NCBI RefSeq assembly: GCF_055900595.2
Contig: NZ_CM148325.1
Strand: one strand, 5' to 3'
Length of the DNA: 64,000 nt
Shown: one piece after another, positions 9,713 through 54,925 of the stretch
Layout: each line of letters begins with the position of its first letter
Position numbering within the stretch: the first letter of the stretch is position 1
Notes under the pieces: generated by a model
Databases searched by the model: none
The model's input: the letters and a program-made list of their open reading frames with translations, nothing else
What the model was told of the DNA's origin: nothing
Position numbers and translations under genes: made by a program

Positions 9713-11604
<1,892 letters not shown>

Positions 11605-17980: not shown

Positions 17981-18056
<76 letters not shown>

Positions 18057-18110
18057 GTTTAAAAGACATCGGCCTCAAGCGGATGTCTGGCTGAAAGGCC
18101 TGAAGAATTT

Positions 18111-18184
18111 GGCGCGTTAACAAAGCGGTTATGTAGCGGATTGCAAATCCGTCTAGTCCGGTTCGACTCCGGAACGCGCCTCCA
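18111..18184 (+). tRNA. cysT: tRNA-Cys (anticodon GCA)
   Basis: 74 nt GGCGCGTTAACAAAGCGGTTATGTAGCGGATTGCAAATCCG...CGCGCCTCCA. Confidence 0.97.
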
Positions 18185-18196
18185 CTTTCTTCCCGA

Positions 18197-18283
18197 GCCC
18201 GGATGGTGGAATCGGTAGACACAAGGGATTTAAAATCCCTCGGCGTTCGCGCTGTGCGGGTTCAAGTCCCGCTCCGGGTACCA
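18197..18283 (+). tRNA. leuZ: tRNA-Leu (anticodon UAA), long variable arm
   Basis: 87 nt GCCCGGATGGTGGAATCGGTAGACACAAGGGATTTAAAATCCC...GGGTACCA. Confidence 0.97.
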
Positions 18284-36486: not shown

Positions 36487-36513
36487 TTCTCCCGATTTCC
36501 TCAATTGAAATGA

Positions 36514-36542
36514 ACCCGATGATCTGCGCATCGGGTTTTTTA
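36514..36542 (+). terminator. Rho-independent terminator of motAB-cheAW
   Basis: ACCCGATG...CATCGGGT hairpin followed by TTTTTT. Confidence 0.85.
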
Positions 36543-36572
36543 TTTCAATTTCGCGGCGGGTGGCATCAGCAA

Positions 36573-36599
36573 TAAAGTTTCCCCCCTCCTTGCCGATAA
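36573..36599 (+). promoter_or_regulatory. sigma28 promoter of tar-tap-cheRBYZ
   Basis: TAAAGTTT-N11-GCCGATAA, an exact match to the sigma28 consensus, about 30 nt upstream of the tar ATG. Confidence 0.9.
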
Positions 36600-42284: not shown

Positions 42285-42929
42285 ATGATGCAACCATCAA
42301 TCAAACCTGCTGACGAGCATTCAGCTGGCGATATCATTGCGCGCATCGGCAGCCTGACGCGTATGCTGCGCGACAGTTTGCGGGAACTGGGGCTGGATCA
42401 GGCCATTGCCGAAGCGGCGGAAGCCATCCCCGATGCGCGCGATCGTTTGTACTATGTTGTGCAGATGACCGCCCAGGCTGCGGAGCGGGCGCTGAACAGT
42501 GTTGAGGCGTCACAACCGCATCAGGATCAAATGGAGAAATCAGCAAAAGCGTTAACCCAACGTTGGGATGACTGGTTTGCCGATCCGATTGACCTTGCCG
42601 ACGCCCGTGAACTGGTAACAGATACACGACAATTTCTGGCAGATGTACCCGCGCATACCAGCTTTACTAACGCGCAACTGCTGGAAATCATGATGGCGCA
42701 GGATTTTCAGGATCTCACCGGGCAGGTCATTAAGCGGATGATGGATGTCATTCAGGAGATCGAACGCCAGTTGCTGATGGTGCTGTTGGAAAACATCCCG
42801 GAACAGGAGTCGCGTCCAAAACGTGAAAACCAGAGTTTGCTTAATGGACCTCAGGTCGATACCAGCAAAGCCGGTGTGGTAGCCAGTCAGGATCAGGTGG
42901 ACGATTTGTTGGATAGTCTTGGATTTTGA
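42285..42929 (+). CDS. cheZ: CheY-P phosphatase CheZ
   Basis: Track ORF 42255..42929 trimmed to ATG 42285 ([12 protein letters not shown]...); matches K-12 CheZ (214 aa). Confidence 0.95.
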
Positions 42930-42937
42930 TTTGTATT

Positions 42938-43001
42938 GCCTGATGTGGCGTGACCACGTCATATCAGGCGGTCTGATAAGGCGATGACGCCGCATCCGAC
43001 A
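42938..43001. repeat. BIME: two inverted REP elements between cheZ and flhB
   Basis: GCCTGATGTGGCGTGACCACGTCATATCAGGC (42938-42969) and GGTCTGATAAGGCGATGACGCCGCATCCGACA (42970-43001) resemble Z- and Y-type REP palindromes. Confidence 0.7.
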
Positions 43002-43130
43002 AACGCACACTATGCTTGATGTGTGGCAGCAAAAGCCCTAAATCCCGCCTGTTTTGCCCCTTACTCAAACCATTGAACGCTTTGCGCTCTGGCATCATTC
43101 ACGCTTAATACTCTTTCCAGGATTGGCGAC

Positions 43131-44279
43131 GTGTCTGACGAGAGCGACGACAAAACAGAAGCCCCCACACCTCACCGACTAGAAAAAGCGCGGGAAGAGG
43201 GGCAAATCCCGCGTTCCCGTGAACTGACCTCACTGCTGATTTTGCTGGTGGGCGTTAGTGTTATCTGGTTTGGCGGTGTGTCGCTGGCCCGTCGATTGTC
43301 GGGCATGCTCTCCGCTGGGCTGCATTTTGATCACAGTATTATCAAAGACCCGAATCTGATCCTCGGGCAGATTATTCTGCTGATCAGAGAAGCCATGCTG
43401 GCGCTGCTGCCACTGATTAGCGGCGTGGTACTGGTGGCGCTCATTTCTCCGGTCATGCTGGGAGGGCTGGTATTTAGCGGCAAATCCTTGCAGCCGAAGT
43501 TTTCCAAACTCAACCCGCTACCGGGCATTAAACGGATGTTCTCGGCTCAGACTGGCGCGGAGTTGCTTAAAGCAATTTTGAAAACCATCCTGGTTGGCAG
43601 CGTGACGGGGTTTTTTCTCTGGCATCACTGGCCGCAGATGATGCGCTTAATGGCCGAGTCTCCGATTACCGCCATGGGTAATGCGATGGATTTGGTAGGG
43701 CTATGCGCACTGCTGGTGGTGCTTGGTGTCATTCCAATGGTGGGATTTGACGTCTTTTTCCAAATCTTCAGCCACCTGAAAAAGCTGCGAATGTCGCGGC
43801 AGGATATTCGTGATGAGTTCAAACAAAGCGAAGGCGACCCCCATGTTAAAGGACGGATCCGTCAGATGCAGCGAGCTGCCGCACGGCGTCGGATGATGGC
43901 CGATGTGCCGAAAGCGGATGTCATTGTCAATAACCCGACCCACTATTCGGTAGCGTTGCAGTATGACGAAAACAAAATGAGCGCACCGAAAGTGGTCGCT
44001 AAAGGTGCAGGGCTGGTCGCGCTGCGCATTCGTGAAATTGGCGCTGAAAATAACGTCCCGACGCTTGAAGCGCCGCCGCTGGCGCGAGCGCTGTATCGAC
44101 ATGCGGAGATTGGTCAACAAATCCCGGGTCAACTGTACGCCGCGGTGGCGGAAGTGCTGGCCTGGGTCTGGCAACTGAAACGCTGGCGTCTGGCTGGTGG
44201 ACAGCGCCCTGTACAACCTACTCATCTTCCGGTGCCGGAAGCCCTGGATTTTATTAACGAGAAACCGACCCATGAGTAA
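43131..44279 (+). CDS. flhB: Flagellar type III export protein FlhB
   Basis: Track ORF 382 aa, GTG start; NPTH autocleavage motif; matches K-12 FlhB. Confidence 0.95.
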   Translation: MSDESDDKTEAPTPHRLEKAREEGQIPRSRELTSLLILLVGVSVIWFGGVSLARRLSGMLSAGLHFDHSIIKDPNLILGQIILLIREAMLALLPLISGVVLVALISPVMLGGLVFSGKSLQPKFSKLNPLPGIKRMFSAQTGAELLKAILKTILVGSVTGFFLWHHWPQMMRLMAESPITAMGNAMDLVGLCALLVVLGVIPMVGFDVFFQIFSHLKKLRMSRQDIRDEFKQSEGDPHVKGRIRQMQRAAARRRMMADVPKADVIVNNPTHYSVALQYDENKMSAPKVVAKGAGLVALRIREIGAENNVPTLEAPPLARALYRHAEIGQQIPGQLYAAVAEVLAWVWQLKRWRLAGGQRPVQPTHLPVPEALDFINEKPTHE

Positions 44280-50046: not shown

Positions 50047-50802
<756 letters not shown>

Positions 50803-50847
50803 TTTTTACCGTTGCATCATGTCGCCCAATATGATGCTTGCTCGTAC

Positions 50848-50881
50848 CAGGCCCCTGCAATTTCAACAGGGGCCTTTTTTT
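50848..50881 (+). terminator. Rho-independent terminator of yecM-cutC
   Basis: AGGCCCCTG...CAGGGGCCT hairpin followed by TTTTTTT. Confidence 0.85.
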
Positions 50882-54773: not shown

Positions 54774-54802
54774 AAATTGCTGAGAAAGTGTGCTTTGTTC
54801 AT

Positions 54803-54900
54803 GCCGGATGCGACGTGAACGCCTTATCCGGCCTACAAAATTGTGCAAATTCAATATATTGCAGGAGATGAGTAGGCCTGATAAGCGTAGCGCATCAGGC
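54803..54900. repeat. REP pair (BIME) between torZ and cmoB
   Basis: GCCGGATGCGACGTGAACGCCTTATCCGGCCTAC (54803-54836) and inverted GTAGGCCTGATAAGCGTAGCGCATCAGGC (54872-54900). Confidence 0.75.
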
Positions 54901-54925
54901 AGTTTTTGCGTTTGTCATCTATCTC

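Follow-up and report, generated by a model that had tools for sequence, protein, structure and literature searches.

Identity of the element between cheZ and flhB

The gap between the end of the tar-tap-cheRBYZ operon and the start of flhBAE raises two questions, namely what kind of element occupies it and whether that element helps to hold the two flagellar operons apart. In the window (the whole 64-kb stretch of DNA that was analyzed), cheZ and flhB are both on the plus strand and leave a gap of 201 nt. An earlier note on this DNA had proposed that two imperfect REP-type palindromes lie here in inverted orientation at 42938-43001, and a repeat finder, RNA folding, the Rfam model naRNA4 and the EcoCyc entry REP140 all agreed with this proposal. 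The coordinates given at that time proved right to within 1-2 nt, and a truncated third unit at 43013-43029 had been missed. The features of the locus are listed below, each with the evidence on which its assignment is based (PU, palindromic unit).

42285 to 42929, plus strand: cheZ, the last gene of the tar-tap-cheRBYZ operon (open reading frame with a full CheZ translation; TGA stop at 42927-42929)
42930 to 42937, plus strand: 8-nt spacer TTTGTATT from the cheZ stop to the first hairpin base (sequence)
42937 to 42999, no strand assigned: EcoCyc REP140 (Supplementary Table 15 coordinates, mapped from MG1655 1966323-1966385)
42938 to 42969, plus strand: PU1, a probable diverged Z2-like palindromic unit in forward orientation (inverted repeat I1, fold, Rfam naRNA4)
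42971 to 43000, minus strand: PU2, a Y-type palindromic unit in inverted orientation (fold, identity to REP325 Y, Rfam naRNA4, copy number)
43001 to 43012, plus strand: 12-nt head-to-head linker AAACGCACACTA, colinear with the REP325 Y-to-Z2 linker AACGGTGCCGAC (alignment)
43013 to 43029, plus strand: truncated third unit, the 5' arm of a Z2-type palindromic unit alone, TGCTTGATGTGTGGCAG (direct repeat D1 with the start of PU1; alignment)
43020 to 43135, plus strand: C-rich, G-poor stretch, a candidate Rho utilization site (in vitro Rho-binding peak and composition)
43030 to 43130, plus strand: flhB class 2 promoter region with an FlhDC binding site (near-invariant among Escherichia; FlhDC ChIP-seq peak centered at about 43067)
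43131 to 44279, plus strand: flhB, with a GTG start, the first gene of flhBAE (open reading frame; MG1655 annotation)

The REP pair is already known, as it is the catalogued E. coli element REP140 (EcoCyc), which is listed between the tandem genes cheZ and flhB at MG1655 1966323-1966385 (Supplementary Table 15, bioRxiv 10.64898/2026.03.23.713779). Window positions were mapped to MG1655 using the relation K-12 coordinate = 2009322 - window coordinate, obtained from the open reading frame ends and the MG1655 annotation, in which cheZ (645 nt) covers 1966393-1967037 on the minus strand, with its stop at 1966393, and flhB starts at 1966191. REP140 and the window element are the same object, the cheZ-flhB gap being 100% identical to that of K-12-type strains. 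A 301-nt stretch around the element had a match in 5385 of 5426 genomes; in many complete genomes, one of them an MG1655 derivative, the match was 100% identical.

The element is wholly extragenic: it lies past the cheZ stop (42929) and short of the flhB start (43131), and belongs to the 3' untranslated region of the tar-tap-cheRBYZ operon. E. coli K-12 has about 355 catalogued REP elements, and their occurrence at the ends of operons is textbook knowledge. As such the element is ordinary, and its significance extends little beyond correct annotation. The copy of the MG1655 RefSeq record that was used contains zero repeat_region features, and even the RIP1/REP site known from near 5.6 kb is blank in it, so the blank annotation of the cheZ-flhB gap is uninformative. 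Two features are added here to the EcoCyc annotation of REP140, the truncated third unit at 43013-43029 and the missing GTAG/CTAC motifs. Overall, the element is an old, partly decayed and atypical BIME-2-like cluster in which a Z2-like unit is followed by an inverted Y unit and, across a linker, by a truncated Z2 arm.

Folding and REP identity of the two units

When 91 nt around the element were folded as RNA, two adjacent hairpins were obtained at -36.9 kcal/mol (z = -4.0), a stability that no shuffle out of 200 reached. A REPIN-like arrangement as a single long hairpin was also considered and rejected, since its -28.5 kcal/mol falls short of the stability of the two-hairpin fold. None of the Rfam families is a REP family in the strict sense, and naRNA4 (RF02564), derived from the Y and Z2 units of REP325, is the only model built from REP units. 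A 241-nt search restricted to the gap returned three naRNA4 matches (E = 2.6e-4, 3e-3 and 0.1), all of which scored below the gathering score (21-32 bits vs 59.5). Similarity to REP models, which the earlier note had named beforehand as the check on its proposal, was thus found in these three matches at the site and in PU2, whose minus strand is identical to the REP325 Y unit at 29 of 36 positions, exceeding all 500 shuffles. A search with a fixed-spacing REP pattern gave zero matches, the element itself included, which was missed because its loop length differs.

PU2 (42971-43000) is a clear Y-type REP. Its stem consists of 10 pairs with internal mismatches and, when folded alone, reaches -11.2 kcal/mol on the sense strand (z -3.4) and -12.7 kcal/mol on the antisense strand; the Y half of naRNA4 aligns to it. 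An AA/GC internal mismatch is formed by A42978 and A42979 opposite G42992 and C42993, and such an AA/GC stem bulge is conserved in E. coli REPs (PMC8266576). BLAST against 5417 E. coli records located PU2 at at least 40 places per genome, and it is through PU2 only, not PU1, that the element qualifies as having a high dispersed copy number.

For PU1 (42938-42969), the repeat finder reported arms at 42938-42952 and 42955-42969 that are 87% complementary, and the RNA folds into an uninterrupted 14-bp stem with a GACC loop. By BLAST with this unit alone, the median was 1 place per genome, which makes PU1 essentially single-copy. Its ends are of REP type (TGCCTGATG...TATCAGGC) and its inner stem is different from REP: the canonical internal mismatch (AA/GC) has been replaced by standard pairs and, compared with the Z2 unit of REP325, the stem has become perfect by repair of the usual C-T mismatch. 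Identity to the REP325 Z2 unit is 26 of 37 positions, which is not above the best shuffle, and the Z2 half of naRNA4 matches PU1 at 20.7 bits (E 0.1). In E. coli SCPM-O-B-8794 (L010) the PU1 position is occupied by TGCCTGATGCGATGCTGACGCATCTTATCAGGCCTAC, a near-canonical Z2 including the CTAC tail (33 of 37 positions identical to Z2 by manual count). Based on its end motifs, the weak covariance-model match and the near-canonical Z2 of L010, PU1 is probably a diverged Z2-like REP. The pair has the arrangement of a BIME, as it was labeled in the earlier note: the forward Z2-like unit and the inverted Y unit alternate in orientation and are colinear with the Z2-linker-Y unit of REP325.

The stability of PU1 depends on the strand. 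Folded alone, the sense strand reaches -23.7 kcal/mol (z -5.9) and the antisense strand -15.6 kcal/mol, the latter being weaker because two G-U pairs turn into A-C mismatches. This stability on the mRNA strand points to selection at the RNA level and to a role in the cheZ transcript. Each of the seven Escherichia sequences in the comparison retains the PU1 stem (94.7% of cells paired vs 18-49% in slid-partner controls), and two of its pairs displayed compensatory double changes; with seven related sequences, which are few, this conservation of pairing is supportive and not decisive.

The same asymmetry bears on a possible role at the DNA level, in which the element would be a site for DNA gyrase or a nucleoid protein and would organize supercoiling between two flagellar operons that are both highly transcribed. 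BIME-2 is an established binding target of gyrase, and a gyrase or nucleoid role has been proposed for BIME-2 and REP325. The Y/Z2 composition of the element does resemble BIME-2; however, the canonical linker motifs are missing, PU1 is optimized on the RNA strand and not symmetric as DNA, and one preprint found neither a chromosome-compaction role nor REP-REP contacts for REPs (bioRxiv 10.64898/2026.03.23.713779), all of which leaves a DNA-level role extremely unlikely.

Linkers, truncated third unit and missing transposase signals

PU1 and PU2 abut (...ATCAGGC followed directly by GGTCTGATAAGG...), which leaves a tail-to-tail linker of 0-1 nt; elsewhere in Escherichia this linker is 6-8 nt long. 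The GTAG/CTAC motif is absent at both units, with GGTC found after PU1 and CGCC after PU2 (in canonical orientation), and CTAC is retained after PU1 in the L010 copy. GTAG (CTAC) beside the palindrome is required for binding and cleavage by TnpA-REP, and no change in it is tolerated by the E. coli REP transposase (PMC8266576). With both units lacking the motif, the copy in the window is probably immobile and no longer a substrate of the REP transposase. The element is thus probably a fixed relic of the REP family and not a mobile member of it.

Downstream of PU2, the 12-nt head-to-head linker is present and can be aligned to REP325. It is followed by TGCTTGATGTG, for which B2 strains, E. whittamii and L010 have exactly TGCCTGATGTG. 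This third unit consists of the 5' arm of a Z2-type unit; its 3' arm is absent, no hairpin is formed, and the fold of the region is no better than that of shuffles (z -0.08). The best naRNA4 match (42970-43037) spans exactly the Y unit, the linker and the partial Z2. With up to one mismatch, the motif TGCCTGATGYG occurs eight times in the window (both strands) vs 3.3 expected, four of the eight being chance sites; with so few copies in the window, one at the expected offset is unlikely to arise by chance (roughly 2e-4, as an estimate). Judged by this alignment and spacing, the element reaches about 43029, past both the EcoCyc end and the end given in the earlier note. Other candidates were examined and rejected. 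Matches of TGCCKGATGCG at 11190, 28003, 54338 and 57755 were not accepted as REPs, having no matching 3' arm downstream, and 43030-43052 (AAAGCCCTAAATCCCGCCTG) was not accepted as the 3' arm of the third unit, as it is conserved in Citrobacter, which is without units 2 and 3, and coincides with the FlhDC site.

Comparison with named REP systems places these features in context. REP325 (naRNA4) is a BIME-2 between yjdM and yjdN that contains six Y-Z2 pairs, laid out as six repeats of GTAG, inverted Y, a 12-nt linker, Z2, CTAC and a 17-nt linker. REP140 has in common with it the unit types, the alternating orientation, the 12-nt head-to-head linker followed by TGCCTGATG, and the location in a 3' untranslated region between tandem genes. 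In contrast, REP325 has twelve full units where REP140 has two, and CTAC, 17 nt and GTAG stand between its tails vs 0-1 nt in REP140. A BIME-1 (Y, an L motif with an IHF site, and Z1), as found for example at 54797-54905 of the window, is likewise made of two inverted tail-to-tail REP units in an intergenic region, but it has a long AT-rich L linker, intact CTAC/GTAG tails and a Z1 partner, none of which is present in REP140. REPINs (two inverted REPs mobilized by a RAYT transposase) also bring two inverted REP units side by side, whereas the units of REP140 are of different types, are more stable as two hairpins, and are without the GTAG needed by the E. coli enzyme.

Transcription termination and separation of the operons

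The earlier note had also suggested that the element acts as a terminator or mRNA stabilizer and separates the two flagellar operons. Published RT-PCR, an in vitro Rho-binding peak and the general behavior of REPs are consistent with that suggestion. An intrinsic (Rho-independent) terminator of the tar-cheZ operon might be expected from the stable GC-rich hairpins immediately 3' of the last gene, and a canonical hairpin plus T-run does occupy the same slot in some other genera (see below). However, no U-tract follows either hairpin in the window, the respective tails being GGTCTGAT and AAACGCAC, and an intrinsic terminator scan of the plus strand from 42700 to 43300 found none. The missing U-tract argues that the element is not an intrinsic terminator, and hairpins without uridines are a hallmark of Rho-dependent 3' ends (PMC6061677), so we consider this explanation very unlikely.

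Rho-dependent transcripts are trimmed by PNPase and RNase II to stable hairpins without uridines, with the rut site just downstream (Dar and Sorek 2018, PMC6061677). The locus is similar to such 3' ends in having a stable stem-loop without a U-tract directly 3' of the gene and an excess of C over G just downstream. Within 43036-43113 (78 nt), C minus G is +18, which falls in the top 0.13% of 78-nt windows in the 64-kb window, and the fold of the candidate rut region is no more stable than that of its shuffles. In vitro, a peak of Rho binding was obtained with or without NusG at 1966187-1966302 (minus strand), equivalent to 43020-43135 of the window (Delaleau 2022, as tabulated in bioRxiv 10.64898/2026.03.23.713779). 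According to the same tabulation, the peak is on the sense strand, begins 21 nt downstream of REP140, and is not flagged as overlapping a bicyclomycin-sensitive transcript.

Because the FlhDC site and promoter coincide with this C-rich stretch, neither its composition nor its conservation need be due to Rho. The FlhDC ChIP-seq peak is centered at 1964280 in older coordinates (Fitzgerald et al. 2014, PMC4183435 Table 1); adding 1975 converts this to current coordinates and to about 43067 of the window, an offset that was checked on flgA/flgB. The peak at this position places the class 2 promoter apparatus directly 3' of the REP cluster. A consensus scan of the region for flhB promoter hexamers gave none.

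Transcript data for the two operons show near separation. RT-PCR across cheZ-flhB yielded very little product, RNA-seq gave no evidence of co-transcription (Fitzgerald et al. 2014, PMC4183435), and slight read-through from cheZ to flhB was observed only under FliA overexpression (PMC4183435). REPs in general have been documented to block 3' exonucleases and to act as partly Rho-dependent attenuators (PMC6061677; bioRxiv 10.64898/2026.03.23.713779), and the preprint describes REP325 as a partly Rho-dependent attenuator or terminator that also stabilizes upstream mRNA. Stabilization by REPs is not uniform, as reporter insertions failed to produce it and terminal REPs were unlinked to longer half-lives (same preprint). 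The Adams 2021 supplements, which have no cheZ or flhB entry, list no sense-strand cheZ 3' end or Rho-dependent region; the SMRT-Cappable-seq supplements contain no cheZ 3' end, and a literature search for published Term-seq data on cheZ was without result. As a separate observation, the Adams 2021 supplement does list an antisense-strand Rho region at position 42988 of the window.

The reading that we prefer, and hold to be somewhat probable, is a Rho-assisted operon end at which the REP hairpin, chiefly PU1, would serve as a 3' exonuclease block and operon boundary. RNA polymerase would run beyond the cheZ stop codon, whereupon the strong PU1 hairpin (42938-42969), and usually also the weaker PU2, would form in the mRNA. 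Rho would then load on the untranslated C-rich RNA (about 43020-43135) and release the transcript before or within the flhB start, and 3'-to-5' exonucleases would trim the released RNA to the base of the REP hairpin, which would be left as the stable 3' terminus of the chemotaxis mRNA. In sum, the sigma-28-driven late operon would be insulated from the FlhDC-driven flhBAE operon. Direct observations are the hairpins and their REP identity, the lack of a U-tract, the C-rich composition and a hairpin that is conserved at this position; the papers contribute in vitro Rho binding, the near-absent cheZ-flhB co-transcript and the general behavior of REPs. From these lines of evidence together, we infer that REP140 itself may be the cause of the 3' end and of the insulation.

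Hairpins after cheZ in other Enterobacteriaceae

A degenerate pattern derived from the flhB start identified 76 loci in species-representative genomes, and cheZ was found within 1.5 kb upstream in 41 of them. At all 41 of these Enterobacteriaceae loci a stable hairpin (-15 to -39 kcal/mol) follows the cheZ stop, starting 0-39 nt from it and within 15 nt in 38 cases. In Silvania, Leclercia, Kosakonia, Phytobacter, Franconibacter and Cedecea the post-cheZ hairpins have T-runs and look like canonical intrinsic terminators. Those of Citrobacter and Salmonella have REP-type ends (GCCGGATG…CATCCGGCTTAC and GACCTGATG…TTATCGGGTCTGA) and align with PU1, GTATT spacer included; this GTATT of the 8-nt spacer is present at the same place in Citrobacter. 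The gap typically measures ~145-180 nt in Enterobacter and Citrobacter vs 201-214 nt in Escherichia, and the difference is about the size of units 2 and 3.

With a hairpin at 41 of 41 loci, the slot after cheZ appears to be functional and, in Escherichia, to be filled by a REP. What is conserved is a hairpin slot right after cheZ, the occupant of which turns over. Some genera have an intrinsic terminator in this slot, and Escherichia, Citrobacter and Salmonella have a REP there; the comparative value of the slot lies in showing how REPs can take over a 3'-end role across Enterobacteriaceae.

The short distance between hairpin and stop codon raises a further possibility, namely that PU1, 8 nt past the stop, stalls the terminating ribosome and lowers the output of CheZ, an effect that could add to a role in 3'-end formation. 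REPs less than 16 nt from a stop codon (within 15 nt) cause ribosome stalling and down-regulate translation (Liang, Rudd and Deutscher 2015, as summarized in PMC12306157). The distance in the window is inside the range of this rule as given there, PU1 forms a very stable hairpin in the mRNA (-23.7 kcal/mol), and the hairpin also starts no more than 15 nt from the stop in 38 of the 41 related species. However, terminator hairpins are commonly found close to stop codons anyway, so the proximity of PU1 is not diagnostic, and our search for published data on CheZ tagging or ribosome stalling found none; translational tuning of CheZ is thus decidedly doubtful. If true, it would have a bearing on chemotaxis protein stoichiometry.

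A broader proposal would join this tuning to the Rho-assisted operon end. PU1 would be an ancient RNA-strand-optimized hairpin that predates the split of Escherichia, Citrobacter and Salmonella, would act as a Rho-dependent insulator together with the C-rich FlhDC-box region, and would set CheZ vs CheY output by ribosome stalling, making it a domesticated-repeat regulatory module of chemotaxis stoichiometry. We put this forward as a speculative and doubtful combination.

Variation of the element within Escherichia

In Escherichia alignments, polymorphism of the gap is concentrated in 42948-43029, and 43030-43130 is nearly invariant. ST131-type strains have lost the 5' arm of PU2 through a 13-nt deletion between two AGGCG repeats, and substitutions abolish the PU2 fold in MRSN346647. 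In strain AHM8C160RI, a 2.4-kb cassette on the opposite strand is found in place of 42945-43037, and this cassette is present in 107-109 of 5426 genomes. Such replacement of the whole element in about 2% of E. coli genomes indicates that the element as such is dispensable.

This variation would also be expected if the element were a neutral relic, that is, a selfish or hitch-hiking REP pair decaying in a tolerant gap, with the operons separated otherwise, for example by hairpin-independent action of Rho on the C-rich RNA. Such decay would account for two units without GTAG/CTAC and a deleted tail linker, for a REP zone that is the sole strongly polymorphic part of the gap beside an invariant promoter zone, for a Y unit broken in ST131-type strains and MRSN346647 without obvious consequence, and for the cassette that stands instead of the element in those 107-109 genomes; the effects of REPs are, moreover, described as context-dependent and often absent (bioRxiv 10.64898/2026.03.23.713779). 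Less easily reconciled with neutrality are the presence of the PU1 hairpin in all seven Escherichia sequences with compensatory changes, the strand asymmetry of PU1 in favor of the mRNA, and the stable hairpin in the same slot in 41 of 41 related species, which together leave a neutral origin of the whole element possible, if on the unlikely side. This counter-evidence covers PU1 only, and it is quite plausible that PU2 and the truncated third unit are neutral relics. The Rho-assisted operon end, as preferred above, assigns its boundary function chiefly to PU1.

Within E. coli, the post-cheZ site is a hot spot of polymorphism, subject to decay, deletion and replacement by a defense-type cassette. 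Beside a 250-aa protein for which no family match was found, this cassette encodes a defense-type dGTPase (PADLOC PDLC02374, E 1e-70).

A reported antisense Rho region at REP140

For the antisense strand of cheZ and flhB, Supplementary file 2 of Adams et al. 2021 gives a Rho termination region whose centre falls within the Y unit of REP140, the REP element between these two genes:

42988 (centre), minus strand (K-12 1966334, + strand): antisense Rho region inside the REP140 Y unit (Adams et al. 2021)

Its Rho score was 5.7 (p = 1.2e-5) and coverage was low (Adams et al. 2021). The presence of this region suggests that a weak antisense transcript comes from the flhB side and is stopped by Rho near REP140.

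Variation of the cheZ-flhB gap among genomes

Of 5426 complete E. coli genomes, 107-109 have a two-gene cassette of 2.4 kb instead of REP140 in the cheZ-flhB gap. The cassette is represented here by locus L005 from E. coli AHM8C160RI:

L005 556-3000, opposite strand: cassette, in place of window 42945-43037

Its junctions in L005 read TGCCTGA/ACTTCGG and AAACGTC/CTAAATCCCGCC. One of the genes encodes a defence-type dGTPase (PADLOC PDLC02374, E 1e-70; Pfam HD), while the second product (250 aa) had no match in either Pfam or PADLOC.

Extra DNA of varied content was also observed in the gap of several other genera (loci L031, L049, L033, L037, L064, L056 and L074), with gap lengths between 358 and 1314 nt. 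The Kosakonia and Phytobacter gaps encode a membrane protein of 219 aa that contains the motif EEVIFRG and, judged by eye, resembles CPBP/CAAX proteases, the Leclercia gap holds one ORF of 214 aa, and that of Buttiauxella holds two short ORFs. Overall, the cheZ-flhB gap seems to be a site of recurrent insertion.

In Citrobacter sp. MGH106 (locus L040), the first 60 nt past cheZ contain a REP that is nearly canonical and has a CTAC tail. After it comes GTAGGCCGGAGC, with which an inverted unit begins. Relatives of this strain carry a hairpin without the tail at the same position. This case illustrates the turnover of REPs at a single conserved position.

Other repeat and RNA features in the window

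A canonical BIME-1 was identified elsewhere in the window, at 54797-54905, where a Y unit with CTAC is followed by an AT-rich L linker and then by GTAG and an inverted Z1 unit. Its Y unit was matched by Rfam naRNA4, a model built from REP325, and the L linker and Z1 start by Rfam ES036 (CssrF; 54837-54879). Additional RNA features were as follows:

50574-50881, + strand: MicL sRNA (Rfam match, gathering level)
36506-36583, - strand: C0465 RNA (Rfam match, gathering level)
17981-18280: three tRNAs

All of these RNA features are expected in K-12 and bear no relation to the REP140 finding.
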